Shown: positions 1 to 15,072, counted from the stretch's first letter. The stretch: 64,000 bases of DNA from Escherichia coli (GCF_046105845.1 NZ_CP151004.1), one strand, 5' to 3'. Program-made: numbers and translations. The notes: a model not told the origin generated them from the letters alone.

Positions 1-273
1 GGCGACAAACGCTGTAATTACCAGCGCCGGAACAGGGCCAGGCATTTTTTTTGCTGTTTTCACCTGATTTCGTTCAATTGTTTTATGTAAGGATTTTCCC
101 ATCAACGGTAATTTTGTCACTGCACGACCGACATTTCCGGCCTGTTTTCCTAAATGAACTCTTTCGGCTGCACCATATTTTTCGACAACGGTAATGAGAT
201 GTTCACACACCGTTGACTTGCCTGAACCATCGCTACCAATAACGGCAATTAATGGAGGTGTTATTGACTGCAT
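1..273 (-). CDS. yghT: P-loop NTPase (nucleotide-kinase-like), N-terminal part; gene continues beyond window start
   Basis: Minus-strand ATG at 273..271 preceded by AAGGA SD; translation [22 protein letters not shown]... carries a Walker A motif paralogous to the two downstream ORFs; position matches K-12 gene order (recalled). Confidence 0.7.
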
Positions 274-446
274 GAATATATCCTTTAATTTAAATATCCA
301 TTAAAAATATTTATTTGGTTAATATGTTTTTATGAAAGCGTAATTCAGGTCAATGTCACAATTAACCATTGTCACAATAAGGTTGAACGGATATTCTGAG
401 CACGGACCACGTAATATTCAATACATTATTTGCTGCCGGGTTTTTC

Positions 447-1160
447 GTGAATCAACGTAATATGTCAATAATTAATTCCACGCCAGTGCGTGTTATTGCC
501 ATTGTAGGATGTGATGGTTCAGGTAAATCGACCCTCACGGCAAGCCTGGTAAATGAACTGGCAGCAAGAATGCCAACAGAACACATTTATCTCGGGCAAT
601 CGTCCGGGCGAATTGGCGAATGGATTTCACAGCTCCCTGTTATTGGCGCACCTTTTGGGCGTTATTTGCGAAGTAAAGCGGCACATGTGCACGAAAAGCC
701 CTCAACACCGCCTGGCAATATTACTGCTCTGGTTATCTATCTGCTTTCCTGCTGGCGGGCGTACAAGTTTCGCAAAATGTTGTGTAAAAGCCAGCAAGGC
801 TTTCTGCTCATCACCGACCGCTACCCGCAGGTTGAAGTGCCGGGTTTTCGCTTTGATGGCCCGCAATTGGCAAAAACCACGGGCGGTAACGGTTGGATAA
901 AAATGTTAAGGCAGCGCGAGCTGAAGCTGTACCAATGGATGGCATCTTATTTGCCCGTATTGTTGATTCGTCTTGGCATTGATGAACAAACGGCGTTTGC
1001 GCGTAAACCTGACCACCAACTGGCAGCGTTACAGGAAAAAATCGCCGTTACGCCGCAACTGACATTCAATGGTGCAAAGATCCTTGAACTGGATGGTCGG
1101 CAACCAGCCGATGAAATTCTGCAAGCGTCACTACGCGCAATTCACGCCGCGCTTTCCTGA
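447..1160 (+). CDS. yghS: P-loop NTPase, nucleotide-kinase-like (237 aa)
   Basis: ORF track; Walker A GCDGSGKST near N-terminus, DRYP motif; paralog of neighbours; GTG start at 447 (alternative ATG at 462). Confidence 0.75.
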   Translation: MNQRNMSIINSTPVRVIAIVGCDGSGKSTLTASLVNELAARMPTEHIYLGQSSGRIGEWISQLPVIGAPFGRYLRSKAAHVHEKPSTPPGNITALVIYLLSCWRAYKFRKMLCKSQQGFLLITDRYPQVEVPGFRFDGPQLAKTTGGNGWIKMLRQRELKLYQWMASYLPVLLIRLGIDEQTAFARKPDHQLAALQEKIAVTPQLTFNGAKILELDGRQPADEILQASLRAIHAALS

Positions 1161-1191
1161 TCACCAAAATGGATAGGGGATGATTTAACGA

Positions 1192-1950
1192 ATGGATGCA
1201 CTACAAACACAAACTGTTATTAGTACAACCGCGCCGCAGCCCAGCTACATTCCGGGGCTAATTGCGGTGGTCGGGTGTGATGGCACCGGTAAATCCACAC
1301 TGACCACCGACCTGGTGAAATCGCTGCAACAACACTGGCAAACCGAGCGGCGCTATCTGGGGCTGCTCTCCGGCGAAGACGGCGACAAAATCAAACGATT
1401 GCCGTTGGTTGGCGTCTGGCTGGAACGGCGACTGGCGGCCAAATCCTCGAAAACCCAAAGCATGAAAACCAAATCTCCTGCGCTATGGGCGGCGGTGATT
1501 ATGTACTGCTTCTCGCTGCGAAGAATGGCGAATCTACGCAAGGTTCAGCGACTGGCGCAAAGTGGCGTTCTGGTGGTCAGCGATCGCTTCCCGCAGGCTG
1601 AAATTTCGGGCTTTTATTATGACGGACCGGGGATTGGCGTCGAACGTGCGACCGGGAAAATCAGCATGTTTCTGGCGCAGCGCGAACGGCGTTTATACCA
1701 ACAAATGGCGCAATACCGTCCTGAATTAATCATTCGTTTGGGGATTGATATTGATACTGCCATCTCCCGCAAGCCTGACCATGACTATGCCGAGCTGCAG
1801 GACAAAATCGGTGTTATGTCGACGATTGGCTATAACGGCACAAAAATTCTTGAGATTGATTCCAGAGCGCCCTACAGCGAAGTGCTGGAACAGGCACAGA
1901 AGGCGGTTTCTCTGGTTGCCATCGTTTCTGACCGCCGAAGTTTAACTTAA
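1192..1950 (+). CDS. yghR: P-loop NTPase, nucleotide-kinase-like (252 aa)
   Basis: ORF track; Walker A GCDGTGKST, DRFP motif; paralog of yghS/yghT. Confidence 0.75.
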   Translation: MDALQTQTVISTTAPQPSYIPGLIAVVGCDGTGKSTLTTDLVKSLQQHWQTERRYLGLLSGEDGDKIKRLPLVGVWLERRLAAKSSKTQSMKTKSPALWAAVIMYCFSLRRMANLRKVQRLAQSGVLVVSDRFPQAEISGFYYDGPGIGVERATGKISMFLAQRERRLYQQMAQYRPELIIRLGIDIDTAISRKPDHDYAELQDKIGVMSTIGYNGTKILEIDSRAPYSEVLEQAQKAVSLVAIVSDRRSLT

Positions 1951-1995
1951 GGCTGGCGGGATACTTTTTACTATCAACGATAAGGTCAGGCTGAA

Positions 1996-3345
1996 TTGGC
2001 GGGTTTTAACATCAAACATTGGTTTGCAGATGGCGCGTTTCGCACCATTATTCGCAATAGCGCCTGGTTAGGCTCCAGTAATGTCGTGAGCGCCTTGCTG
2101 GGTCTGTTGGCGCTCTCGTGTGCCGGTAAAGGGATGACGCCCGCCATGTTTGGCGTACTGGTGATTGTGCAATCGTACGCCAAGTCGATCAGCGATTTTA
2201 TTAAGTTTCAGACATGGCAGCTGGTGGTTCAGTACGGAACACCAGCATTAACCAACAATAATCCGCAGCAATTCCGCAATGTCGTCTCATTTTCCTTCTC
2301 GCTGGATATCGTCAGCGGCGCGGTGGCGATTGTCGGCGGCATTGCCTTACTCCCTTTTCTTTCCCATTCATTAGGTCTGGATGACCAAAGCTTTTGGCTG
2401 GCGGCGCTGTATTGCACGCTCATTCCTTCAATGGCTTCCTCCACGCCGACCGGCATTCTGCGTGCGGTAGATCGCTTCGATTTAATTGCTGTACAGCAGG
2501 CGACGAAACCTTTTCTGCGCGCAGCGGGGAGCGTCGTAGCCTGGTATTTTGACTTTGGTTTTGCGGGCTTTGTTATTGCCTGGTACGTGTCGAATCTGGT
2601 TGGCGGCACCATGTACTGGTGGTTTGCCGTGCGCGAATTACGCTGCAGAAATATCCATAACGCCTTCAAATTGAATCTGTTTGAGTCTGCCCGACACATT
2701 AAAGGCGCGTGGAGTTTTGTCTGGTCAACCAACATTGCCCACTCCATCTGGTCGGCACGTAACTCGTGCAGCACAGTGTTGGTGGGGATCGTGTTAGGAC
2801 CCGCTGCCGCCGGGTTATTTAAAATCGCCATGACATTCTTCGACGCCGCCGGAACGCCAGCGGGTTTACTGGGTAAAAGTTTTTACCCAGAGGTGATGCG
2901 TTTAGATCCGCGCACCACCAGACCGTGGTTGTTAGGCGTGAAGTCAGGTTTACTGGCGGGCGGAATCGGTATTCTGGTGGCGCTCGCGGTGTTGATCGTC
3001 GGCAAGCCGCTCATTTCGCTGGTGTTTGGCGTTAAGTATCTCGAAGCGTATGACCTGATTCAGGTGATGCTGGGCGCAATTGTGATTTCGATGCTGGGCT
3101 TCCCACAGGAGTCATTGCTATTGATGGCGGGAAAACAGCGTGCTTTTCTCGTGGCGCAAACCATCGCCTCAATCGGCTACATCGTATTGCTGTTCATGTT
3201 CTGTCATCTGTTTGGCGTGCTGGGGGCTGCATTTGCTTACTTCGCTGGGCAATGTCTGGATGTGGTGCTCTCGCTAATTCCAACCTTAAAGGCATTTTTT
3301 CAGCGCCATTCCTTGCTTTATAACGCAGCCGGAGAGAAATCCTGA
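1996..3345 (+). CDS. yghQ: Polytopic membrane protein, Wzx/MOP-type polysaccharide or lipid flippase-like (start uncertain, TTG at 1996)
   Basis: 449-aa ORF, highly hydrophobic with multiple predicted TM segments; position after yghR as in K-12 (recalled). Confidence 0.65.
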   Translation: MAGFNIKHWFADGAFRTIIRNSAWLGSSNVVSALLGLLALSCAGKGMTPAMFGVLVIVQSYAKSISDFIKFQTWQLVVQYGTPALTNNNPQQFRNVVSFSFSLDIVSGAVAIVGGIALLPFLSHSLGLDDQSFWLAALYCTLIPSMASSTPTGILRAVDRFDLIAVQQATKPFLRAAGSVVAWYFDFGFAGFVIAWYVSNLVGGTMYWWFAVRELRCRNIHNAFKLNLFESARHIKGAWSFVWSTNIAHSIWSARNSCSTVLVGIVLGPAAAGLFKIAMTFFDAAGTPAGLLGKSFYPEVMRLDPRTTRPWLLGVKSGLLAGGIGILVALAVLIVGKPLISLVFGVKYLEAYDLIQVMLGAIVISMLGFPQESLLLMAGKQRAFLVAQTIASIGYIVLLFMFCHLFGVLGAAFAYFAGQCLDVVLSLIPTLKAFFQRHSLLYNAAGEKS

Positions 3346-4169
3346 TGATGAGAAAATATTTCCCGCTTGAGGCTAGCGAGCGTCTATTTGTTGCGATTGA
3401 AGAAGATGATGTCGTTGATGCACAGGTCAGTTTGCCGCCGACTATCGCACTAAGTTGTACCACCGAAATCATCCATGATAATTACGCGTTATGCCTGAAA
3501 TTCTGGCTGGATGGTGTTAATCGTCAGGAGCTACTGCGTTTAATCCGCAAACAGGCGAAAGGCGATGAGCTGACGACAGACGAGCGCAAAAAGTATAAAT
3601 ACATGCGAGCGCGCTACAAGCACCTGCGTTTTGCGCAACGGCTGTATTTAAAGAAGCATCAGGCCGGATTTTTATTCGGCAAAACGACCGTTTTTTTGGG
3701 GCGTTTTCAGGACGGCTTTCGTAACGGTAAGAAAAATATTGTGTCGTATTACGGCAACCTGTTACGGGTTTATTTAAGCTCTTCGGTCTGGTCGTTGGTG
3801 AACTATTCATTACGCCATAGCCAGTTAGAAAGCGTAAGCGGTTTTATTGCCTATCGGCAAAAGCAAATGCATACCCTGAAAGAGATAATTGCCAAACCGC
3901 GACTAACTGGCAGGGAATTTCATGATGTGCGAAAAATCATCAGCCAGCAGGTTTCTTATTACGACACCCTAAGATCGCTTGATCCTGAAAATAAAGAGGC
4001 GTTACAGATTTCCCGCTTCCTCGCCGCCATTAATGGCCTGATGGGGGATAAACACGACGACATGGTGGCGGATGATATGGAAAACCGCCAGTCGTATGAT
4101 GCACCGGTGGCGCTGGATAGCGATATTCGCCAGCGCTTAGAGCTGCTGATTTCGCGTTTTCCGCTATAA
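3345..4169 (+). CDS. Hypothetical soluble protein (274 aa), basic, no recognisable motif
   Basis: ORF track; ATG overlaps yghQ stop (TGATG) suggesting translational coupling. Confidence 0.6.
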   Translation: MMRKYFPLEASERLFVAIEEDDVVDAQVSLPPTIALSCTTEIIHDNYALCLKFWLDGVNRQELLRLIRKQAKGDELTTDERKKYKYMRARYKHLRFAQRLYLKKHQAGFLFGKTTVFLGRFQDGFRNGKKNIVSYYGNLLRVYLSSSVWSLVNYSLRHSQLESVSGFIAYRQKQMHTLKEIIAKPRLTGREFHDVRKIISQQVSYYDTLRSLDPENKEALQISRFLAAINGLMGDKHDDMVADDMENRQSYDAPVALDSDIRQRLELLISRFPL

Positions 4170-4177
4170 CCGGAGCA

Positions 4178-4741
4178 ATGATGTCATCTCGTTTGATTAT
4201 TGCGCTGATTATCATGCTCTTAGCCCCGGGTGTGCAGGCACACAATTTCGTCACTGGCAAAACGGTTACCCCCGTTTATATCCAGGAAGGCGGTGAGTTG
4301 CTTCTGAATAGCGACGACGAAATTCACTACCAAAAGTGGAACAGCACACAGCTGGCGGGAAAAGTCCGCATTATTCAGTATATCGCCGGGCGTAAGTCGG
4401 CGAAGAAAAAGAACTCACTGTTAATTAAAGCGGTTGAAGCGGCAAACTTTCCGCAGGATCGTTTTCAGCCCACCACCATTGTGAACACCGATGATGCCAT
4501 CTTTGGTACTGGCTATTTTGTCGTTGGCAAAATCGAAAAAAATAAACGCCGCTATCCGTGGGCGCAATTCGTTATTGACGGCAATGGACTGGGACGCGTT
4601 GCCTGGCGGTTGCCGGAGCAGAGTTCAACCATTCTGGTGCTGAATAAAGACGGGCAAATTCAGTGGGCAAAGGACGGCAGCCTGACGCCGGAAGAGGTAG
4701 ATCATGTCATTGCGCTGGCGCAGAAACTGATCAATGAATAA
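4178..4741 (+). CDS. Secreted/periplasmic protein, YtfJ-like (187 aa)
   Basis: N-terminal signal peptide MMSSRLIIALIIMLLAPGVQA; overall similarity to the YtfJ periplasmic family as I recall it. Confidence 0.6.
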   Translation: MMSSRLIIALIIMLLAPGVQAHNFVTGKTVTPVYIQEGGELLLNSDDEIHYQKWNSTQLAGKVRIIQYIAGRKSAKKKNSLLIKAVEAANFPQDRFQPTTIVNTDDAIFGTGYFVVGKIEKNKRRYPWAQFVIDGNGLGRVAWRLPEQSSTILVLNKDGQIQWAKDGSLTPEEVDHVIALAQKLINE

Positions 4742-4771
4742 AAAATTCAAAGGATTGAGGGCGTTAGTGAG

Positions 4772-5842
4772 ATGAAGCTGGTTGAACACTACATCATGCG
4801 TGGTACGCGCCGTCTGGTGTTGATTATCGTCGGTTTTCTGATCTTTATTTTCGCCAGCTACTCCGCACAGCGTTATCTGGCCGAAGCGGCAAATGGGACA
4901 TTAGCTCTTGATGTTGTGCTGGATATCGTTTTCTACAAAGTGCTGATTGCACTGGAGATGCTGTTACCTGTTGGACTATATGCTTCAGTTGGCGTGACGC
5001 TAGGGCAAATGTATACCGACTCGGAAATTACCGCTATCTCCGCGGCGGGGGGCAGTCCGGGACGCTTGTACAAAGCCGTTCTTTATCTGGCGATACCGCT
5101 AAGTATTTTTGTCACCCTTCTGTCGATGTATGGTCGTCCGTGGGCTTATGCGCAGATTTATCAATTGGAGCAACAGTCACAGTCGGAGCTGGATGTTCGC
5201 CAGTTGCGGGCAAAGAAATTTAACACTAACGATAACGGACGAATGATCCTTTCGCAGACGGTTGATCAGGATAATAATCGCCTGACTGACGCGCTGATTT
5301 ATACTTCTACTGCCAATCGAACCCGCATTTTCCGCGCCCGTTCGGTTGATGTGGTTGACCCATCACCTGAGAAACCGACTGTTATGTTGCACAACGGCAC
5401 TGCCTATCTTCTCGATCATCAGGGGCGTGACGACAACGAACAGATCTACCGTAATCTGCAATTACATCTGAATCCGCTGGATCAAAGCCCTAACGTCAAA
5501 CGCAAAGCGAAATCGGTCACGGAGCTGGCGCGCTCCGTCTTTCCAGCCGATCATGCCGAACTGCAATGGCGACAAAGCCGTGGCCTGACAGCATTGTTGA
5601 TGGCGCTGCTGGCCATTTCATTAAGTCGGGTAAAACCGCGGCAAGGGCGATTTTCAACATTATTGCCACTGACGTTGCTGTTTATTGCCATTTTTTATGG
5701 CGGCGACGTCTGCCGTACGCTGGTGGCTAACGGCGCGATTCCCCTCATTCCTGGTTTGTGGTTAGTACCCGGACTCATGCTAATGGGCCTGCTGATGCTG
5801 GTCGCACGCGACTTCTCTTTGCTGCAGAAATTTTCCCGATGA
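4772..5842 (+). CDS. LptF-like permease (YjgP/YjgQ family) paralog
   Basis: 356-aa membrane protein; N-terminal TM block, central periplasmic domain, C-terminal TM block; conserved SEITAI motif as in LptF/LptG. Confidence 0.7.
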   Translation: MKLVEHYIMRGTRRLVLIIVGFLIFIFASYSAQRYLAEAANGTLALDVVLDIVFYKVLIALEMLLPVGLYASVGVTLGQMYTDSEITAISAAGGSPGRLYKAVLYLAIPLSIFVTLLSMYGRPWAYAQIYQLEQQSQSELDVRQLRAKKFNTNDNGRMILSQTVDQDNNRLTDALIYTSTANRTRIFRARSVDVVDPSPEKPTVMLHNGTAYLLDHQGRDDNEQIYRNLQLHLNPLDQSPNVKRKAKSVTELARSVFPADHAELQWRQSRGLTALLMALLAISLSRVKPRQGRFSTLLPLTLLFIAIFYGGDVCRTLVANGAIPLIPGLWLVPGLMLMGLLMLVARDFSLLQKFSR

Positions 5843-6918
5843 ATGTTTTCAGTCGCTATTTAATCCGTCATCTCTTTCTCGGTTTTGCCGCCGCCGCAGG
5901 ATTATTGCTGCCGCTTTTTACCACCTTCAACCTGATTAACGAACTGGATGATGTCAGCCCGGGCGGTTATCGCTGGACTCAGGCGGTGCTGGTGGTGCTG
6001 ATGACCTTACCGCGCACACTGGTCGAACTTTCGCCGTTTATCGCATTATTGGGAGGGATTGTTGGCCTGGGGCAGTTATCGAAAAACAGTGAGCTTACCG
6101 CTATTCGCAGCACTGGGTTTTCTATCTTCCGTATTGCACTGGTGGCGCTGGTTGCCGGGATATTGTGGACTGTTTCGTTAGGCGCGATAGATGAGTGGGT
6201 GGCGTCGCCATTGCAGCAACAGGCGCTGCAAATCAAATCGACTGCCACCGCGTTGGGGGAGGACGATGACATTACCGGCAATATGCTTTGGGCCAGGCGC
6301 GGTAATGAATTTGTGACGGTGAAATCGCTGAACGAGCAGGGCCAGCCTGTGGGCGTGGAGATATTTCATTATCGCGACGATCTCTCGCTCGAATCCTACA
6401 TTTTTGCACGCAGTGCCACCATTGAAGACGACAAAACGTGGATCCTGCATGGTGTGAATCATAAAAAATGGTTGAATGGCAAAGAAACGCTGGAAACATC
6501 AGATAATCTTGCCTGGCAATCGGCCTTCACCAGTATGGATCTTGAAGAGTTATCGATGCCGGGGAATACTTTTTCTGTCCGTCAGCTTAATCATTACATC
6601 CATTATTTGCAGGAAACCGGGCAACCCAGCAGCGATTACCGCCTTGCACTGTGGGAAAAACTGGGGCAACCCATCTTAACTCTGGCGATGATTTTGCTGG
6701 CTGTGCCGTTTACCTTTAGTGCCCCGCGTTCGCCTGGGATGGGTAGCCGTCTCGCTGTAGGCGTCATCGTGGGCTTACTCACCTGGATCAGCTATCAAAT
6801 CATGGTCAATCTGGGATTGCTATTTGCGTTGAGCGCACCTGTTACCGCGCTCGGTTTACCGATAGCGTTTGTGCTGGTGGCGTTGAGCCTGGTGTATTGG
6901 TATGACAGTCAACATTAA
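5839..6918 (+). CDS. LptG-like permease (YjgP/YjgQ family) paralog
   Basis: ATG at 5839 overlaps upstream stop (ATGA); MNVFSRYLIRH... with SELTAI motif; same topology as LptG. Confidence 0.7.
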   Translation: MNVFSRYLIRHLFLGFAAAAGLLLPLFTTFNLINELDDVSPGGYRWTQAVLVVLMTLPRTLVELSPFIALLGGIVGLGQLSKNSELTAIRSTGFSIFRIALVALVAGILWTVSLGAIDEWVASPLQQQALQIKSTATALGEDDDITGNMLWARRGNEFVTVKSLNEQGQPVGVEIFHYRDDLSLESYIFARSATIEDDKTWILHGVNHKKWLNGKETLETSDNLAWQSAFTSMDLEELSMPGNTFSVRQLNHYIHYLQETGQPSSDYRLALWEKLGQPILTLAMILLAVPFTFSAPRSPGMGSRLAVGVIVGLLTWISYQIMVNLGLLFALSAPVTALGLPIAFVLVALSLVYWYDSQH

Positions 6919-6952
6919 ACCCGCCGTGGCGCAGCACCACAGCGGGCTCACA

Positions 6953-8125
6953 TTACTGCTTCAGAGTAGCAAATGCCTGAATGATGGCATCGATTTGCTC
7001 ACGACTGTGGGCAGCGTTTACGCTACAGCGCAGCAGCGTGATGCCTGCAGGCGCGGCAGGTGGCAGGATAAGATTCACATAAACGCCCAGCGAAATAAGC
7101 TCGCGCCAGATGCGTAAACCTTCCTCTTTCGAACCGATTATTACTGGCACTACCGGGCTAATATGTGAACTTAACTCGTAACCCAGTTTTTGCAGACCGT
7201 CATACAGATGGTTGGCGTTATCCATCAGCTTTTGCCGCAGCTCTGGTTGTGAGGCAATGGTTCTTAACGACGAGCGCACGGTCGCAATGCAGGACGGAGA
7301 AGGAGAGGCGGTAAAAATATACGGGCGGCTGCCGTAGCGCAGCACTTCCATCGCTTCCGAACCGACAGCAAAACCGCCAATCGAGGCCAGACTTTTACTG
7401 AAAGTACCAACGATAATATCCACATCATCTTCAACGCCAACGGCTTCAGCCAGTCCGCGCCCCATTGCGCCTAACACGCCAAACGAATGCGCTTCATCGA
7501 CAATCAAATAACCACCGAGACGACGTTTGATATCAACAATTTCCGCTAACGGCGCAACGTCACCGAGCATGCTGTAGATACCCTCAACGATGATAATCGC
7601 CTCTTTCGCCCGTTCACCGAGGCGAACCATGCGCCGTTCCAGATCTTTAGCATCGTTATGGCGGAAACGAATAATTTCCGCGCCACCGAGAGAACAGGCG
7701 TCATAAATACTGGCGTGGCTGTCGGCATCCAGTAACACCACGGCGTTATGGTCGGCAAGTGCGCTGATGACGCCTAAATTAGCGGTATAACCGGTTGAAA
7801 AAACGATAGCGGTAGGGCGATTAAAAAACTCGGCGATCTCTTTCTCTAACGCCAGATGCGGCGCATAACTGCCGTTTGCCATACGAGAACCGGTGGTGCC
7901 GGTGCCTTGGGCCGCTAACGCTGCCTGACCTTCGGCGATGGCATCATGATTGAAGGTTAATCCGAGATAATTATTGGTCCCGGCCAGAATCACTTTTTTA
8001 TTGCCGATCCGACCTTCGGTGGCGGAATACACTTCATCAATACAGGTACCAAACGGCGTTAACCCGTTGTCACTAAATTGCAGTCGCTCGCCAGCAAGGC
8101 GCGCATATTTATCGTATAGCCCCAT
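6953..8125 (-). CDS. PLP-dependent alpha-oxoamine synthase (serine palmitoyltransferase / BioF / Kbl family), 390 aa
   Basis: Motifs NNYLGL, GTFSKSL (PLP-lysine), DEAHSFG; start ATG overlaps upstream ACP stop (TAATG). Confidence 0.8.
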   Translation of the reverse strand: MGLYDKYARLAGERLQFSDNGLTPFGTCIDEVYSATEGRIGNKKVILAGTNNYLGLTFNHDAIAEGQAALAAQGTGTTGSRMANGSYAPHLALEKEIAEFFNRPTAIVFSTGYTANLGVISALADHNAVVLLDADSHASIYDACSLGGAEIIRFRHNDAKDLERRMVRLGERAKEAIIIVEGIYSMLGDVAPLAEIVDIKRRLGGYLIVDEAHSFGVLGAMGRGLAEAVGVEDDVDIIVGTFSKSLASIGGFAVGSEAMEVLRYGSRPYIFTASPSPSCIATVRSSLRTIASQPELRQKLMDNANHLYDGLQKLGYELSSHISPVVPVIIGSKEEGLRIWRELISLGVYVNLILPPAAPAGITLLRCSVNAAHSREQIDAIIQAFATLKQ

Positions 8126-8373
8126 TATTTATTCTCCAGCCATGGAAGTAGTGTTTCCATTAATTGCGCAGGGGTTTTGACATCCAGCAGAATATTAATA
8201 GGAATGGAAATATCGAATCTGTCTTCCAGCATCATTAAGAGATCCATCACTTTGATCGACTCCAGGCCAAGATCGTTGACGAGATCGCTGTCGGGCTTAA
8301 TTTCCACACCGTTTTCGACCAAATCCTGTAAACAGGAAAGGATGTAATCCATTACTATTTCACGATTTACCAT
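8125..8373 (-). CDS. Acyl carrier protein (82 aa)
   Basis: DLGLESIKVMDL phosphopantetheine-attachment motif; small acidic protein. Confidence 0.8.
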   Translation of the reverse strand: MVNREIVMDYILSCLQDLVENGVEIKPDSDLVNDLGLESIKVMDLLMMLEDRFDISIPINILLDVKTPAQLMETLLPWLENK

Positions 8374-8404
8374 AGAAACGTTAACACACCTTTAAACAAG
8401 ACAA

Positions 8405-9319
8405 TCAAAATAGCCCGTTGCGTAATGCGTGTTCCAGGCTAATCCCGGGAAACCAATTAATATCTTCAGAAATACGGTTATTACTTGCCGACCAGTCGGC
8501 ATGAGTTAATTCACGGATTTTCGAACGAGTCAGCATCGGTTCTTTACCCGCCAGACGGCTCAACGCGGTACTGATATCCGCAAGGCAGGTGAGTAGCGAC
8601 AGAGGAATACCGACCATCCGCACGGAACCACAACGGGCGTCGGCGGCAAGCTGTCTTACGCGTTGCCAGTCATAGCCGCCGGCGACGCCATCGCATAATT
8701 CATAGGTTTGCGTCTGTACAGTTTCGGCGCTTAACCACTGCCCCACGGCTTGCGCGAAATCGGTGACGTGCAGGAAAGAGAGCTGTGTCTCTGGCGCACC
8801 AAGTCGTGGCAGCAGGCCGCGCAGCATCCAGTCAAACAGCGGTTTTAACTCTTTATCGCCGGGACCATACACGGCTGTCGGGCGAAAAACGCCCAGCGTA
8901 ATTTCATCAGCCATTGCAGTCAGCCGTTGTTCGGCGACGTGTTTGGAATTTGCGTACCAGGAGAGTTCGGGATGGCGCGCCGCCAGCGAAGAGATAAACA
9001 GAAAACGTTGGCAAAAGCCGCTCTCTTTTGCCGCTTGCATCAGTCGCAGGCTGCCGTCAACGTTACAGCGGGTAAAAATCTCTTCTTTGTGCCCGCGCAC
9101 TTGCCCGGCGCAATGGACCACCGCGCTGGCTCCGGCAACCAGTTCGCTAAGTGAATGAGTATCTTCCAGAGAACCGCGCACCCAGATGAGATTGTCATTG
9201 ACGTGAGCGCGGGCAGTACGCGTCAATGTGCGAACGTGAAAGCCGCGGGCGAGCAGGTTATCGATAATATATTTACCGATAAACCCGGTAGCGCCCGTCA
9301 CCGCGACAGTTTGATTCAT
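8405..9319 (-). CDS. NAD(P)-dependent epimerase/dehydratase-family reductase (SDR fold), ~304 aa
   Basis: Rossmann motif VAVTGATGFIGKYII just after ATG at 9319; ATG overlaps upstream stop (ATGA); longer ORF-track start at 9529 rejected. Confidence 0.7.
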   Translation of the reverse strand: MNQTVAVTGATGFIGKYIIDNLLARGFHVRTLTRTARAHVNDNLIWVRGSLEDTHSLSELVAGASAVVHCAGQVRGHKEEIFTRCNVDGSLRLMQAAKESGFCQRFLFISSLAARHPELSWYANSKHVAEQRLTAMADEITLGVFRPTAVYGPGDKELKPLFDWMLRGLLPRLGAPETQLSFLHVTDFAQAVGQWLSAETVQTQTYELCDGVAGGYDWQRVRQLAADARCGSVRMVGIPLSLLTCLADISTALSRLAGKEPMLTRSKIRELTHADWSASNNRISEDINWFPGISLEHALRNGLF

Positions 9320-11037
9320 GCCAGGGATTCCTGCACATGAAGGCTTGCAGCATAAGCCTTCTGATAACGTTTTTTCGCTTCCGCACGGGCAGGCTTGCCG
9401 GAGGACGTTCGGGGAATACTGTGGGGCGGCAACAGATCGATAGCCGCTGTTACGCCAAATTCGCTTTGGATCCGTGCTACCAGCGCGTGGATAAGCTGCC
9501 CACGACGTTCTTCGTCGCTGATCCGACACTGGATCTGCAAAATGATTTTTTCCTGGGCGGTAACAAAAGCAATCGCATCGCCAGAATGAATTTCCGGTTC
9601 CTGTTCCGCAATATATTCAATATCCTGCGGCCAGATATTACGGCCACGAATAATAATCAGATCTTTAATGCGCCCGGTGACATACAGATAACCGTCCAGC
9701 AGATAACCGAGGTCGCCGGTGTCTAACCAGCCCGTCGCGGCAATCTCGTCTTGTGAAATCTGGTCGCCAAAGTAACCGCTCATCAGGCTAGGGCCGGAGA
9801 TGCAAATATGGCCTACCACACGTTCCGCGGCAGGTATACCTGCTTCATTGCGGATTTCAATGCCATGTTCTGGCAACGCTTTACCGCAGTTGACGAAAGT
9901 CGATACGGCGCGTGTTTCAGCACCCGGCGCGACGGCTTTGCCCTGATATTCAAGGATGTCGCGATCCACTTCGTTAACCACAACCCCGGAGGCTTCATCA
10001 GAGAAGCTGACAGCCAGCGCATTTTCTGCCAGTCCGTAGCACGGCATGAACGTTTTATCGTCAAAGTTAACCTGACGGAAACATTCAGCGAATTGATGGA
10101 GTTGTTCTGCGGAGATCGGCTCAGCACCAATACCAGCGACGCGCCAGCAGGATAGATCCAGTTCAGCGAGATCTTTTTCATTCACGCGGCGCTGGCACAA
10201 TTCATAGCCAAACGGCGGCGCAACGGAAACGGTGCCGCGATTTTTACTGATCAATTTAAGCCATTGCAGAGGACGCATGGCAAAATCCTGAGTGCGCAAA
10301 TAATCTACTGAGAGCTGCGTGGCGACGGGGGTCAGGAGAAAGCCGACCAGTCCCATATCATGGTAGAAAGGCAGCCAGGAGACGCAGCGGTCGCCAGGGC
10401 GTAATTTAATGCCATCGTGGCTTATAGCACGTAGATTAGCCATCACTTCGCGATGGGTGATAATGACGCCACGGGGAAAACGGGTGCTGCCGGAGGTGTA
10501 CTGGAGGTAGGCGATATCGTTCGGAACTGGATGCTGGAGTGCAACATCGGCTTCCGGTAATGCCTTAAACCAGGCGTGGCTTAAAACATGTAATTCGGGG
10601 TTGTTATGCGTAGCGGCATTGACCAGTGGCAACCACTCATCACCAGTGATAATGGCTGCGGGCTGGCAACTTGTCAGTAAACCCTGCAGTTTGGCGCTCC
10701 AGGAATCCCGCTGACCGACGCCCATTGGAATCGCCAACGGGACGGCGACTAAGCCGGCATACTGGCAGGAAAAAAAAGCCTCTACGAACCCGCTACTGGT
10801 TTCGGCAATCAGCGCCACGCGATCGCCTTTTTTCAGGTTCAGCGATAACAACCGCTTCGCACCAGCTTCGGCACGCGCTTTTAACGTCTGATATTCCAGT
10901 TGATCTTCAAGTTGGCAACGTCTGTCATAAAAATTCATTCCGGCGCTACTCAGAGCGGCGTAGTCCAAAGCATCAACCAGCGTTGGAAAATCGGCATAGC
11001 GCATAGGTAGGGAATGCGTAAAGATTTTATTAGACAT
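9316..11037 (-). CDS. Fatty acyl-AMP ligase / acyl-ACP synthetase (AMP-binding superfamily), ~573 aa
   Basis: AMP-binding signature YTSGSTRFPRGV; N-terminus MSNKIFTHSLPMRYADF typical of FAAL-type enzymes; ATG at 11037. Confidence 0.75.
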   Translation of the reverse strand: MSNKIFTHSLPMRYADFPTLVDALDYAALSSAGMNFYDRRCQLEDQLEYQTLKARAEAGAKRLLSLNLKKGDRVALIAETSSGFVEAFFSCQYAGLVAVPLAIPMGVGQRDSWSAKLQGLLTSCQPAAIITGDEWLPLVNAATHNNPELHVLSHAWFKALPEADVALQHPVPNDIAYLQYTSGSTRFPRGVIITHREVMANLRAISHDGIKLRPGDRCVSWLPFYHDMGLVGFLLTPVATQLSVDYLRTQDFAMRPLQWLKLISKNRGTVSVAPPFGYELCQRRVNEKDLAELDLSCWRVAGIGAEPISAEQLHQFAECFRQVNFDDKTFMPCYGLAENALAVSFSDEASGVVVNEVDRDILEYQGKAVAPGAETRAVSTFVNCGKALPEHGIEIRNEAGIPAAERVVGHICISGPSLMSGYFGDQISQDEIAATGWLDTGDLGYLLDGYLYVTGRIKDLIIIRGRNIWPQDIEYIAEQEPEIHSGDAIAFVTAQEKIILQIQCRISDEERRGQLIHALVARIQSEFGVTAAIDLLPPHSIPRTSSGKPARAEAKKRYQKAYAASLHVQESLA

Positions 11038-11408
11038 ATACACCACGAAAAAATTGGATATCAAAAATAAAATGACAATAATGCGGTGGATTATATAGGC
11101 ATAAAAGATAAATGAGATAGTATTTTCATCAGTGTGAAAATGAACATTGATTTAAATAATGAGTTTGAGTTTTTTTGTTTTTATTGTGAATGATATTTAA
11201 TTTATGAATATATTAAGAATAAGCCTTGTCCGGTCGCCTTAAATCGACAAAAGGCATTGTGGCGCTTCTGTGTAGTCTCTAACCTTATCGTAATCATTAA
11301 TAAATACTATTTATTCGTCGTTTGTATTCATTGGGTTGATTATTAAGGTGCCGTTCGTTGCTGTTGCAACCTGTTTGTCACCGTTAATTATTTGTTACCC
11401 ACAGAACT
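11038..11408. promoter_or_regulatory. AT-rich divergent intergenic region between the FAAL operon and yghO (promoters inferred, not mapped)
   Basis: 371 bp with long A/T runs between divergently oriented start codons. Confidence 0.4.
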
Positions 11409-12551
11409 ATGGAATGCGATCTGCTGATGATTAAAATTGAAAAAGTAATTAATAAAAATGACCTTAAGGCATTTATCGCTTTTCCGTCATCACTTTATCC
11501 CGACGATCCAAACTGGATACCCCCTTTATTCATTGAACGCAACGAGCATTTGTCTGCGAAAAATCCGGGGACGGACCATATCATCTGGCAGGCGTGGGTG
11601 GCAAAAAAAGCGGGGCAGATAGTTGGGCGTATTACCGTGCAAATAGATACCTTGCACCGCGAGCGTTACGGTGAAGATACCGGTCATTTCGGCATGATTG
11701 ACGCCATTGATGATCCGCAGGTTTTTGCCGCGTTGTTTGGCGCAGCGGAAGCGTGGTTGAAGTCACAAGGTGCAAGTAAGATCAGCGGTCCTTTCAGCCT
11801 GAATATCAATCAGGAAAGCGGATTACTGATTGAAGGTTTCGATACACCACCCTGTGCGATGATGCCGCACGGTAAACCGTGGTATGCCGCGCATATTGAA
11901 CAATTGGGTTATCACAAAGGCATTGATTTACTAGCGTGGTGGATGCAGCGAACCGATCTCACTTTCTCTCCGGCGCTAAAAAAACTGATGGATCAGGTGC
12001 GTAAGAAGGTGACCATTCGCTGCATCAATCGCCAGCGGTTTGCCGAAGAGATGCAGATCCTGCGTGAGATTTTCAACTCTGGCTGGCAGCACAACTGGGG
12101 ATTTGTGCCGTTTACCGAACATGAATTCGCGACTATGGGCGATCAACTTAAATATCTGGTGCCGGACGATATGATCTACATCGCTGAGATTGATTCTGCA
12201 CCCTGCGCGTTTATTGTTGGCTTGCCAAACATCAACGAGGCGATTGCCGATCTGAACGGATCGCTCTTTCCCTTCGGCTGGGCAAAATTGCTGTGGCGTT
12301 TAAAAGTCAGCGGTGTGCGTACTGCGCGAGTACCGCTGATGGGCGTGCGGGACGAGTATCAGTTTAGCCGCATCGGCCCGGTGATTGCGCTGTTATTGAT
12401 TGAAGCCTTACGCGATCCGTTTGCCCGCCGGAAGATCGATGCGCTGGAAATGTCATGGATCCTCGAAACCAATACAGGCATGAATAACATGCTGGAACGC
12501 ATTGGGGCAGAGCCGTACAAGCGTTACCGATTGTATGAAAAGCAGATTTGA
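11409..12551 (+). CDS. yghO: YghO-like protein (380 aa), candidate acyltransferase; function unverified
   Basis: ORF track; position between lipid operon and glcC as for K-12 yghO (recalled); no motif I can assign confidently. Confidence 0.6.
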   Translation: MECDLLMIKIEKVINKNDLKAFIAFPSSLYPDDPNWIPPLFIERNEHLSAKNPGTDHIIWQAWVAKKAGQIVGRITVQIDTLHRERYGEDTGHFGMIDAIDDPQVFAALFGAAEAWLKSQGASKISGPFSLNINQESGLLIEGFDTPPCAMMPHGKPWYAAHIEQLGYHKGIDLLAWWMQRTDLTFSPALKKLMDQVRKKVTIRCINRQRFAEEMQILREIFNSGWQHNWGFVPFTEHEFATMGDQLKYLVPDDMIYIAEIDSAPCAFIVGLPNINEAIADLNGSLFPFGWAKLLWRLKVSGVRTARVPLMGVRDEYQFSRIGPVIALLLIEALRDPFARRKIDALEMSWILETNTGMNNMLERIGAEPYKRYRLYEKQI

Positions 12552-12557
12552 TGGCAG

Positions 12558-13322
12558 TCACCCCTGCTTCATCTCCAGCGGCACCGCCGAGCGAATCAAA
12601 TGGTGGCCTTCCAGCTCGATATCGTGGAGATTCTTTTTCACGGTCCGCACATGATCGCGTGCTGCGCGCTGGGCGACGTGCGGCAGCCGCTGCAACACCG
12701 CGTTGTAGATCCGCGCATGCTGGCGATCGATCTGCTTTTTTTGCTGTGGTCGATGGTAGAGATTATTTACGCTGGCAAACACTGAATTAAACATCAGATC
12801 GGTCAATGATTGCAGCGTAAACACCAACACCTGATTGTGAGAAGCCTGACAAATGGCGAGATGGAAAGCGTGATCCAACTGCGCATGTTCGATCAGCGAA
12901 ATCTCTTTGTTGTTCTCACTGGCGGCGAGCATTTTTTCATAACAGCGGGTTATCACAACAAAATCAGCCTGGGTTCCCAGCGTTGCCGCAAGCCTTGCCG
13001 ATTCCCCCTCCAGCAATGCGCGAACGTCGAGCAGATCGTACAGCGTTCGCGGCTGCGTGCTGAACAGATGAATTAGCGGGCTGGTATCCTGCACCCGATT
13101 AAGCCGTGCGACACGAGAATCGCGACCCTGCGCTGTTTCAATAATCCCGCGCCCGCGCAGCACGGTCAGCCCTTCACGCAGTGCGGAGCGTGAGAAGCCG
13201 AGCTTTTCACACAGTCGACGTTCCGAGGGAAGCGGCTGACCGACCTTCAGTACGCCGTCGATAATTAACCGTTCGATACTCTCTGCAACCACTTCGCAAA
13301 TAGGGCGACGTTCATCTTTCAT
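12558..13322 (-). CDS. glcC: GntR-family transcriptional activator of the glc operon
   Basis: MKDERRPICEVVAESIERLIIDGVLKVGQPLPSERRL... matches GlcC; start at internal ATG 13322 (254 aa). Confidence 0.9.
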   Translation of the reverse strand: MKDERRPICEVVAESIERLIIDGVLKVGQPLPSERRLCEKLGFSRSALREGLTVLRGRGIIETAQGRDSRVARLNRVQDTSPLIHLFSTQPRTLYDLLDVRALLEGESARLAATLGTQADFVVITRCYEKMLAASENNKEISLIEHAQLDHAFHLAICQASHNQVLVFTLQSLTDLMFNSVFASVNNLYHRPQQKKQIDRQHARIYNAVLQRLPHVAQRAARDHVRTVKKNLHDIELEGHHLIRSAVPLEMKQG

Positions 13323-13572
13323 TCCCGGACCTCGTGCACAGGTAGGACCAATTTTTCTGTTCTTAACTCGCAAAACACGCACATCACGTAAGTGATTATG
13401 TTACATCAATTTAACATTAAGTTAACCAAGGCAAGGTCACAGAGCTGGAAAAAAAATGGTCTGACCGGTAGCTAAAGAGATAGACGAAAACGAAAAGCCC
13501 GCTTAATAACTGTTCACAGAAGCAGCGCGCAAAAATCAGCTGCCACACAACACAACAAAGCGAAGCCTACTC
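13323..13572. promoter_or_regulatory. glcC–glcD divergent control region
   Basis: Intergenic between divergent glcC and glcD; regulatory role known for this operon, sites not mapped here. Confidence 0.45.
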
Positions 13573-15072
13573 ATGAGCATCTTGTACGAAGAGCGTCTTG
13601 ATGGCGCTTTACCCGATGTCGACCGCACATCGGTACTGATGGCACTGCGTGAGCATGTCCCTGGACTTGAGATCCTGCATACCGATGAGGAGATCATTCC
13701 TTACGAGTGTGACGGGTTGAGCGCGTATCGCACGCGTCCATTACTGGTTGTTCTGCCTAAGCAAATGGAACAGGTGACAGCGATTCTGGCTGTTTGTCAC
13801 CGCCTGCGTGTATCGGTGGTGACCCGTGGTGCAGGCACCGGGCTTTCTGGTGGCGCGCTGCCGCTGGAAAAAGGTGTGTTGTTGGTGATGGCGCGCTTTA
13901 AAGAGATCCTCGACATTAACCCCGTTGGTCGCCGCGCGCGCGTGCAGCCGGGCGTGCGTAACCTGGCGATCTCCCAGGCCGTTGCGCCGCATAATCTCTA
14001 TTACGCGCCGGATCCTTCCTCACAAATCGCCTGTTCAATTGGCGGCAATGTGGCGGAAAATGCCGGTGGCGTCCACTGCCTGAAATATGGTCTGACCGTA
14101 CATAACTTGCTGAAAATTGAAGTGCAAACGCTGGACGGCGAGGCGCTGACGCTGGGATCGGACGCGCTGGATTCGCCTGGTTTTGACCTGCTGGCGCTGT
14201 TCACCGGATCGGAAGGTATGCTCGGCGTGACCACCGAAGTAACGGTGAAGCTGTTGCCGAAGCCGCCCGTGGCGCGGGTTCTGTTAGCCAGCTTTGACTC
14301 GGTAGAAAAAGCCGGACTTGCAGTTGGTGACATCATCGCCAATGGCATTATCCCCGGCGGGCTGGAGATGATGGATAACCTGTCGATCCGCGCAGCGGAA
14401 GATTTTATACATGCCGGTTATCCCGTCGACGCCGAAGCGATTTTGTTATGCGAGCTGGACGGCGTGGAGTCTGACGTACAGGAAGACTGCGAGCGGGTTA
14501 ACGACATCTTGTTGAAAGCGGGCGCGACTGACGTCCGTCTGGCACAGGACGAAGCAGAGCGCGTACGTTTCTGGGCCGGTCGCAAAAATGCGTTCCCTGC
14601 GGTAGGACGAATCTCCCCGGATTACTACTGCATGGATGGCACCATCCCGCGCCGCGCACTGCCTGGCGTACTGGAAGGCATTGCCCGTTTATCGCAGCAA
14701 TATGATTTACGCGTTGCCAACGTCTTTCATGCCGGAGACGGCAACATGCACCCGTTAATCCTTTTCGATGCCAACGAACCCGGTGAATTTGCCCGCGCGG
14801 AAGAGCTGGGCGGGAAGATCCTCGAACTCTGCGTTGAAGTTGGCGGCAGCATCAGTGGGGAACATGGCATCGGGCGCGAAAAAATCAATCAAATGTGCGC
14901 CCAGTTCAACAGCGATGAAATCACTACTTTTCATGCGGTCAAGGCGGCGTTTGATCCCGATGGTTTGTTGAACCCAGGAAAAAACATTCCCACGCTACAC
15001 CGCTGTGCTGAATTTGGTGCCATGCATGTGCATCACGGTCATTTACCTTTCCCTGAACTGGAGCGTTTCTGA
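13573..15072 (+). CDS. glcD: Glycolate oxidase subunit GlcD (FAD-binding)
   Basis: 499-aa ORF; FAD-binding oxidase family; operon context. Confidence 0.95.
   Translation: MSILYEERLDGALPDVDRTSVLMALREHVPGLEILHTDEEIIPYECDGLSAYRTRPLLVVLPKQMEQVTAILAVCHRLRVSVVTRGAGTGLSGGALPLEKGVLLVMARFKEILDINPVGRRARVQPGVRNLAISQAVAPHNLYYAPDPSSQIACSIGGNVAENAGGVHCLKYGLTVHNLLKIEVQTLDGEALTLGSDALDSPGFDLLALFTGSEGMLGVTTEVTVKLLPKPPVARVLLASFDSVEKAGLAVGDIIANGIIPGGLEMMDNLSIRAAEDFIHAGYPVDAEAILLCELDGVESDVQEDCERVNDILLKAGATDVRLAQDEAERVRFWAGRKNAFPAVGRISPDYYCMDGTIPRRALPGVLEGIARLSQQYDLRVANVFHAGDGNMHPLILFDANEPGEFARAEELGGKILELCVEVGGSISGEHGIGREKINQMCAQFNSDEITTFHAVKAAFDPDGLLNPGKNIPTLHRCAEFGAMHVHHGHLPFPELERF

Follow-up and report, generated by a model that had tools for sequence, protein, structure and literature searches.

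A conserved Escherichia coli locus that is very probably the species' copy of the proteobacterial (dihydro)ceramide pathway, and the accessory operon that travels with it

For a long time, Enterobacteriaceae were believed to lack sphingolipids. The closest described systems are the sphingolipid genes of Caulobacter crescentus and of E. coli BL21(DE3), and we compare them here with a locus found in a 64,000-nucleotide (nt) stretch of an E. coli genome (GCF_046105845.1, NZ_CP151004.1; hereafter the window, numbered from its first letter). Five genes at positions 6953–12551 are predicted to encode a serine palmitoyltransferase (SPT; Spt), an acyl carrier protein (ACP; AcpR), a reductase of the short-chain dehydrogenase/reductase (SDR) superfamily, a fatty acyl-AMP ligase (FAAL; AasR) and an N-acyltransferase (YghO), and together they very probably represent the form that the (dihydro)ceramide pathway of Proteobacteria takes in E. 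coli. The locus is already known, being annotated in RefSeq, published and partly tested at the bench. An initial annotation of the window, made from sequence, had implied that such a pathway was uncharacterised in E. coli; this has to be given up, because the enzymes of E. coli B were tested in 2022 (PMC9386255) and RefSeq names spt.

In that study, Padilla-Gomez et al. (Front Microbiol 13:961041; PMC9386255) examined the BL21(DE3) genes ECD_02851–ECD_02854. AcpR_Ec was labelled in vivo by β-[3H]alanine, co-expression of AasR_Ec, AcpR_Ec and SPT_Ec gave a lipid co-migrating with 3-oxosphinganine, and an extract containing SPT_Ec turned L-[14C]serine into a product resembling 3-oxosphinganine, with a strong preference for palmitoyl-AcpR over palmitoyl-CoA (PMC9386255). 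That AasR acylates AcpR, and neither CoA nor the housekeeping AcpP, was shown in vitro only with the Caulobacter enzyme, and the E. coli case was deduced from the co-expression experiment (PMC9386255). By the paper's own figures (Table S2), ECD_02852 is 34% identical to Caulobacter CC_1164 (E 7e-38, 94% coverage) and yghO (ECD_02850) is 44% identical to CC_1154 (E 1e-107, 98% of length); Figure 9 and Table S2 of that paper place the two genes as orthologs of the Caulobacter reductase and N-acyltransferase. According to the same source, clustering of the five genes is confined to Caulobacter and E. coli BL21, and reviews from 2010 onwards had already recognised E. coli spt. In a preprint of 2026 by Uchendu, Isom and Klein (bioRxiv 10.64898/2026.04.12.717747), Fig. 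2B sets the UTI89 sphingolipid operons of E. coli next to their Caulobacter and S. wittichii counterparts, and LptF/LptG paralogs are noted in gamma-proteobacterial sphingolipid loci.

In the window, four minus-strand genes (6953–11040) form one operon, which runs from aasR (9316–11040; a fatty acyl-AMP ligase and predicted dedicated acyl-AcpR synthetase) through cerR/epi (8405–9319; the extended-SDR, NDUFA9-like protein of 304 amino acids (aa)) and acpR (8125–8373; the dedicated ACP of 82 aa) to spt (6953–8125; a synthase of 390 aa that depends on pyridoxal-5'-phosphate (PLP)). yghO (11409–12551, plus strand, 380 aa) is divergent from this operon, and lptG2, on the other side, is convergent with spt. 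The initial annotation had described four tightly coupled minus-strand genes with overlapping stop and start codons. Its coordinates and both of its overlaps stand (ATGA at 9319–9316, joining the aasR stop to the cerR start, and TAATG at 8127–8123, joining the acpR stop to the spt start with 1 nt shared), whereas the junction between the SDR gene and acpR is a 31-nt spacer with no overlap. The motifs that it quoted (YTSGSTRFPRGV, GATGFIGK, DLGLESI and GTFSKSL) are all contained in the translations. The start of aasR is uncertain, with alternatives at 11040, at 11004 (the BL21 annotation) and at a TTG at 11064 (the mechanically called open reading frame), of which RefSeq uses 11040 or 11004. 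That the open reading frames do not arise by chance follows from matches to curated families far over threshold, from low ratios of non-synonymous to synonymous substitution (dN/dS) and from the presence of the same gene set in other genera, each of which is described below.

The divergent region between aasR and yghO (11041–11408, 368 bp) has a GC content of 31%, compared with approximately 52% in its flanks, and is presumably where the promoters of yghO and of the aasR operon both lie. Consensus promoter and terminator scans gave signals no higher than those of shuffled controls, and we therefore make no regulatory claim; a search of window positions 1–14000 against Rfam returned no match to a structured RNA or riboswitch.

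On the NCBIfam equivalog for serine palmitoyltransferase, NF047599 (cut-off 500), Spt reaches 598.7 bits, and it stays below the cut-off on the other alpha-oxoamine synthase (AOS) models, namely BioF (334 against 426), Kbl (297 against 460), the CqsA type (220.8 against 428) and 5-aminolevulinate synthase (ALAS; 219 against 339). Its closest solved structures are the SPTs of S. wittichii and S. paucimobilis (PDB 2x8u and 2jg2), matched over the full length at 375 bits, and in the alignment with the S. wittichii enzyme the PLP lysine (TFSKS) and the motifs DSHAS, DEAHS and LLRCS are identical, so that the His/Asp/His residues that bind the cofactor are conserved. Among the NCBI Spt models it falls in the beta-proteobacterial one, scoring 428.9 on the alpha model (cut-off 670) and 340 on the CFB model (cut-off 640). 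The protein is 99.0% identical to BL21(DE3) ECD_02854, its gene is labelled 'spt: serine palmitoyltransferase' by RefSeq in every E. coli genome inspected, and it is directly preceded by acpR, with aasR two genes upstream in the same operon. Taken together, these observations support the prediction of a serine palmitoyltransferase of the Rhodobacteria subgroup that would convert L-serine and acyl-AcpR into 3-oxosphinganine. This is in line with the initial annotation, which had read the genes as a sphingoid-base/ceramide module and had named BioF, Kbl, CqsA and HemA-type enzymes as the families against which the synthase should be placed; it lies outside BioF and Kbl, and the families of AasR, AcpR and the SDR were likewise matched.

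AcpR matches ACP models at E ~1e-8, carries its phosphopantetheine serine within DLGLESI and is 100% identical to BL21 ECD_02853. AasR reaches 869 bits on the NCBIfam fatty acyl-AMP ligase model NF006624 (cut-off 600), is co-operonic with acpR and spt, and is 97.5% identical to BL21 ECD_02851. The protein encoded between aasR and acpR matches the Pfam Epimerase family (PF01370, 1.1e-22), as well as NmrA and 3Beta_HSD, and contains both the NAD(P) motif TGxxGxxG, within GATGFIGK, and the catalytic YxxxK motif in the form YANSK; its nearest solved relatives in the PDB are epimerase-type proteins and the complex-I subunit NDUFA9, and it is 96.1% identical to BL21 ECD_02852. These features support its prediction as the 3-keto reductase (CerR/Epi) of the ceramide pathway.

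YghO required a different approach, as the single sequence had no Pfam, NCBIfam or PDB sequence match, and evidence for its fold needed a family alignment together with a structure model. The family comprises 1,118 representatives at E ≤ 1e-30. Within a 115-member alignment, 14 members matched the GNAT family PF00583 at E ≤ 0.001 and 50 at E ≤ 0.1, and the family profile retrieved GNATs from the PDB. An AlphaFold model computed from the same alignment (predicted local distance difference test 96.7, predicted template-modelling score 0.93) shows the whole protein, with high confidence, as a tandem GNAT, with no DNA-binding domain. We then examined genomic neighbourhoods by scanning 100,044 species-representative genomes with a 12-sequence YghO alignment, which yielded 80 loci that were searched with the window proteins; neighbourhood counts use the 48 of these loci that have at least 20 kb of sequence. 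At least one of spt, aasR, cerR or the lptF2–lptG2 pair lies within 10 kb of the YghO homolog in 44 of the 48, with spt present in 26, all four operon genes in 23 and the lptF2–lptG2 pair in 33. Metagenomic contexts of YghO homologs agree with this association with sphingolipid genes. Moreover, a natural fusion protein of 940 aa (P0191) joins a YghO-like tandem GNAT (residues 3–374) to a fatty acyl-AMP ligase (residues ~386–933), which suggests that some enzymes of the bCerS type receive the acyl group directly from a FAAL.

The GNAT matches of the family, the AlphaFold model, the sphingolipid-gene neighbourhoods and the FAAL fusion together make YghO a credible ortholog of the bacterial ceramide synthase bCerS (Caulobacter CC_1154) and a predicted N-acyltransferase, which agrees with the earlier suggestion that the divergent gene encodes the acyltransferase of the module. 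Two further observations concern this gene elsewhere. Shimwellia pseudoproteus has a second yghO paralog (L021, NZ_WBXP01000025.1), 73% identical, with no other island gene within 10 kb, and a complete island on another contig (L012). In Serratia liquefaciens (L004/L005, 11354–11716), a 120-aa gene of the diacylglycerol kinase family (DAGK_prokar) lies directly downstream of yghO.

Combining these assignments, we propose a pathway in which AasR would adenylate a free long-chain fatty acid and load it onto the phosphopantetheine arm of AcpR, after which Spt would condense L-serine with acyl-AcpR, giving 3-oxosphinganine, CO2 and holo-AcpR. YghO would then N-acylate the long-chain base, and the SDR (CerR/Epi) would reduce the 3-keto group to yield dihydroceramide; the relative order of N-acylation and reduction is disputed between the two Caulobacter groups. 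In a fifth step, the neighbouring operon would probably tailor and flip the lipid and extract it from the inner membrane, for which LptF2G2 would be expected to borrow LptB. The first two steps have been shown, by thin-layer chromatography (TLC) and radiolabelling, for proteins that are 97.5–100% identical to those of the window. The third and fourth are predicted on the grounds of fold, synteny and the orthology that links the proteins to Caulobacter enzymes that were tested, and the fifth is suggested by work in Caulobacter and by the conserved neighbourhood.

To determine how widely the locus occurs, we used window positions 4100–12600 (8.5 kb) as a query and counted genomes in which at least 80% of it was covered as carrying the locus. 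It is present in 4,059 of 5,426 complete E. coli genomes (~75%) at 95–99% DNA identity, with carriers including strain W, a Nissle-derived strain and Shiga toxin-producing E. coli (STEC). The strain of the window shares about 97–99% DNA identity with sequenced E. coli. In K-12 MG1655, IS5 stands in place of window positions 3065–11448 (8,384 bp), a deletion that takes the terminal 281 nt of yghQ, the four genes that follow it in its operon, the whole spt operon, the divergent promoter region and the first 40 nt (13 codons) of yghO. The initial annotation, which placed an insertion sequence (IS) element and a yghO pseudogene here in K-12, was essentially right. A different disruption is found in E. 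coli O121 RM8352 (STEC, NZ_CP028110.1), where two IS3-family transposase genes lie inside the locus and the match falls into two pieces covering 83% of the query; it is independent of the IS5 deletion of K-12.

Selection on the genes was estimated as dN/dS by the Nei-Gojobori method in ungapped comparisons with BL21 and with an O169:H41 strain, for 11 scored genes and after frame artefacts had been discarded (ytfJ2 against both strains and aasR against O169). The ratio was 0.04–0.08 for spt, 0.11–0.13 for the SDR gene, 0.11 for the ligase gene and 0.018 for yghO, and it lay between 0.05 and 0.15 for yghQ, yghR, the CHAD-like gene, lptF2 and lptG2; yghS gave 0.04 and 0.38 in the two comparisons. 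These low values indicate that the genes are maintained under purifying selection and are not decaying.

Several points weigh against the reading of the locus as a functioning ceramide pathway, the main uncertainty being physiology. Within Spt, a leucine of the E. coli protein replaces the S. wittichii arginine in the loop ...NTARPPATPAG (window ~7045–7075, residues YVNLILPPAAPAG). We take this arginine to be R378 in S. paucimobilis numbering, a residue that contacts the serine carboxylate. Its replacement means that substrate handling may differ in detail. In the bench study, neither empty vectors nor over-expression of Spt by itself led BL21(DE3) to make a 3-oxosphinganine-like lipid (PMC9386255), so that, in standard culture, the chromosomal operon seems to be silent; the identification of the E. 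coli products was by TLC co-migration alone, and the roles of E. coli YghO and the SDR were only suggested (PMC9386255). No assay of E. coli YghO turned up in the literature searched. We found no sphingolipid of unmodified E. coli in the literature searched, which is weak evidence, as subscription journals were mostly outside its coverage. Finally, the locus has no homolog of the Caulobacter ceramide kinase or cpg genes, and the final lipid can therefore not be inferred from it.

The silent controls raise the question of whether the enzymes are competent but the pathway is cryptic, either permanently silenced or rarely used, with the locus heading for loss as in K-12. The BL21(DE3) experiments, in which the 3-oxosphinganine-like lipid appeared only when acpR, aasR and spt were all supplied on plasmids (PMC9386255), fit such a state, as does the literature search just described. 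So would the low GC content of the divergent region, since regions of this kind are often silenced, as we infer, and this may relate to the silence of the operon; in addition, about a quarter of complete genomes have no intact locus, the K-12 copy was lost through IS5, and IS3 copies sit in that of an O121 strain. However, silence in rich laboratory medium is not evidence of silence in the host or the environment, and dN/dS values of 0.02–0.15 in nearly all of the 11 scored genes, the exception being the single yghS value of 0.38, show that purifying selection continues. It is, moreover, intact in 75% of genomes over lineages as different as W, a Nissle derivative and STEC, and the whole 13-gene set described below is kept in other Enterobacterales genera despite rearrangements. 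We therefore consider a cryptic pathway improbable, and favour a maintained ceramide pathway.

A second explanation, which we regard as highly unlikely, is that the synthase is not a true SPT in vivo but makes another long-chain amino-ketone, for instance a signal of the CAI-1 type, a 1-deoxy base derived from alanine or glycine, or a sulfonolipid precursor formed from cysteate; the module would then give an aminolipid of non-sphingoid type. The arginine-to-leucine change in the active-site loop relative to S. wittichii SPT would be compatible with this, and other members of the same family do appear as weaker matches in the PDB search: below Sphingobacterium SPT (265 bits) come cysteate acyltransferase, Kbl and BioF (177–205 bits), ALAS (171 bits) and CqsA (125 bits). 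Cysteate acyltransferase, however, at 205 bits, stands against 375 bits for SPT, and the Spt equivalog is the only AOS model passed. An extract of SPT_Ec puts L-[14C]serine into a 3-oxosphinganine-like product (PMC9386255), and the neighbouring genes encode orthologs of ceramide-pathway enzymes. BioF, Kbl, CqsA and ALAS were each rejected as identities for the synthase: none of their NCBIfam models reaches its cut-off, and in the PDB search SPT scores about twice as high as they do.

The idea that YghO stands outside the pathway, as an acetyltransferase of proteins or small molecules or as a DNA-binding regulator that merely lies beside the operon, can draw on its K-12 annotation as a putative DNA-binding transcriptional regulator, on its appearance as a candidate in a lysine-acetyltransferase screen, on the isolated second paralog in Shimwellia and on the retention of most of its coding sequence in K-12, where the operon is gone, but it is scarcely credible against a model that is tandem GNAT throughout and without a DNA-binding domain, 44% identity over 98% of the length to Caulobacter bCerS/CC_1154 (PMC9386255), sphingolipid genes near its homologs in 44 of 48 genomes and the existence of the YghO–FAAL fusion, while the copy retained in K-12 has lost its promoter and first 13 codons. 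YghO as a regulator or an orphan was rejected on the tandem-GNAT fold and the synteny.

Upstream on the plus strand, and convergent with spt, lies an operon of seven genes (447–6918) with internal gaps of -4 to 45 nt: yghS (447–1160), yghR (1192–1950), yghQ (1996–3345; 449 aa), a gene for a hypothetical CHAD-like protein (3345–4169; 274 aa), ytfJ2 (4178–4741), lptF2 (4772–5842) and lptG2 (5839–6918). lptF2 and lptG2 overlap by 4 nt, and the 34-nt spacer between lptG2 and spt (6919–6952; AACCCGCCGTGGCGCAGCACCACAGCGGGCT) holds a GC-rich inverted repeat with complementary arms, likely a two-way terminator, of which the terminator scan gives a weaker version at 6936–6922.

The last two genes encode paralogs of LptF (317.1 bits on TIGR04407) and LptG (306.5 bits on TIGR04408), which are predicted, by analogy with Caulobacter, to be partners and probable permease halves of a sphingolipid exporter. 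No ABC ATPase, and hence no lptB, is encoded within window positions 1–13400. The Caulobacter pair, LptF2/G2, binds LptB in a complex and tolerates deletion only in the absence of spt (bioRxiv 10.64898/2026.04.12.717747). RefSeq names both E. coli paralogs 'LPS export ABC transporter permease LptF/LptG', because the equivalog cut-offs of TIGR04407 and TIGR04408 are passed; E. coli genomes of this kind thus appear to carry two lptF/lptG pairs, and the names hide the probable sphingolipid role.

Of the other products, YghQ is a membrane protein resembling MOP/Wzx-type flippases, with a weak match to the MOP flippase family NF007773 (7.7e-9) and a Serratia ortholog that has the Pfam Polysacc_synt domain; the analogous gene in Caulobacter is CC_1166, a predicted Wzx-type flippase. 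YtfJ2 is a predicted secreted protein of the YtfJ family (TIGR01626, 215 bits) with an N-terminal signal-like sequence (MMSSRLIIALIIMLLAPGVQA), and it is retained with the island only in Enterobacterales. The CHAD-like protein has an all-helical fold. YghR is a thymidylate-kinase-like P-loop protein and YghS its paralog; the two are 44% identical and share the motifs GCDGxGKST, DR(Y/F)PQ and RKPDH. YghR has weak matches to thymidylate (dTMP) kinase and, apart from bare P-loop matches, thymidylate kinases are all that the family profile retrieves from the PDB. A role of YghR and YghS as lipid head-group kinases is only a guess.

yghR is co-located with spt or yghO in 10 of the 80 genomes (9 of the 48 loci of at least 20 kb), Pseudomonas and a betaproteobacterium among them, and YghR/S-like genes adjoin spt and yghO in Pseudomonas marginalis (L023:3039–3737) and in a betaproteobacterial metagenome-assembled genome (L048:8205–9644). 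All 13 genes, including yghT, are present in Serratia liquefaciens, with the spt operon on the other side of the yghT–lptG2 block; Erwinia and Rosenbergiella have the same gene set with further rearrangements, and in Luteibacter and Dyella the CHAD-like gene and yghQ have stayed close to yghO. As the genes stay together across genera despite rearrangements, the functional unit looks like one of approximately 13 genes and not of five. An anti-phage defence role of the flanking genes was considered and set aside, PADLOC showing P-loop noise only. In the literature searched, we found no mention of the kinase-like, CHAD-like or YtfJ-like genes as parts of a sphingolipid locus.

We tentatively suggest, as a possibility that we hold to be doubtful for now, that the Enterobacterales island, with YghR/S/T, the CHAD-like protein, YghQ, the YtfJ paralog and LptF2G2, might make a structurally new and probably phosphorylated (anionic) outer-membrane sphingolipid under conditions absent from laboratory culture. 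The CHAD-like fold is a polyphosphate-binding one, and the tailoring and export genes of the island are without counterpart in the Caulobacter cpg pathway. K-12 would be unable to make the proposed lipid, because 8.4 kb of its island has been lost to IS5.

It is of biological note that three quarters of E. coli genomes, among them probiotic, uropathogenic and Shiga-toxin strains but not K-12, carry a ceramide pathway. The pathway could affect outer-membrane properties, sensitivity to antibiotics and polymyxin, and host signalling, a point already in print. What our analysis adds is the distribution of the locus, the extent of the K-12 deletion, the purifying selection on the genes and the accessory operon that travels with them; the novelty that is left lies in the conserved accessory genes and the native lipid, outside what the initial annotation had claimed.

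Among known systems, CqsA/LqsA, BioF, Kbl and ALAS belong to the same superfamily of PLP-dependent AOS enzymes, all with far lower scores and none of them with an accompanying set of ACP, FAAL, SDR and GNAT genes. The Spt of Bacteroidetes and delta-proteobacteria (such as Sphingobacterium multivorum SPT, PDB 3a2b/8guh) shares the reaction and the fold but forms a separate Spt subgroup that uses acyl-CoA, without an AcpR/AasR pair (PMC9386255). As in E. coli, the spt gene of S. wittichii follows a gene for an ACP, whereas in Sphingomonadaceae aasR lies elsewhere in the genome, unlike the E. coli operon (PMC9386255).

Caulobacter crescentus has the same five families, with the same four-gene order in CC_1165–CC_1162 (aasR, cerR/epi, acpR, spt) together with CC_1154 (bCerS/aca), and its region CC_1168–CC_1152 also contains LptF/LptG paralogs and a Wzx-type flippase, as in E. 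coli. The E. coli reductase and acyltransferase are 34–44% identical to their Caulobacter counterparts, and AasR_Ec does not acylate Caulobacter AcpR (PMC9386255). The E. coli locus has no counterpart of the Caulobacter ceramide kinase CC_1160, of CC_1159, CC_1161, CC_1158, CC_1153 and CC_1152 or of LptC2, and has instead the thymidylate-kinase-like YghR/S(/T), the CHAD-like protein and the YtfJ paralog. Closest of all is BL21(DE3), in which ECD_02850–ECD_02854 (yghO/aca, aasR, epi, acpR, spt) lie at the same place on the chromosome, flanked by glcC and the lptG paralog, with equal gene order and overlaps and with proteins 96.1–100% identical to those of the window, so that the two differ only as alleles.

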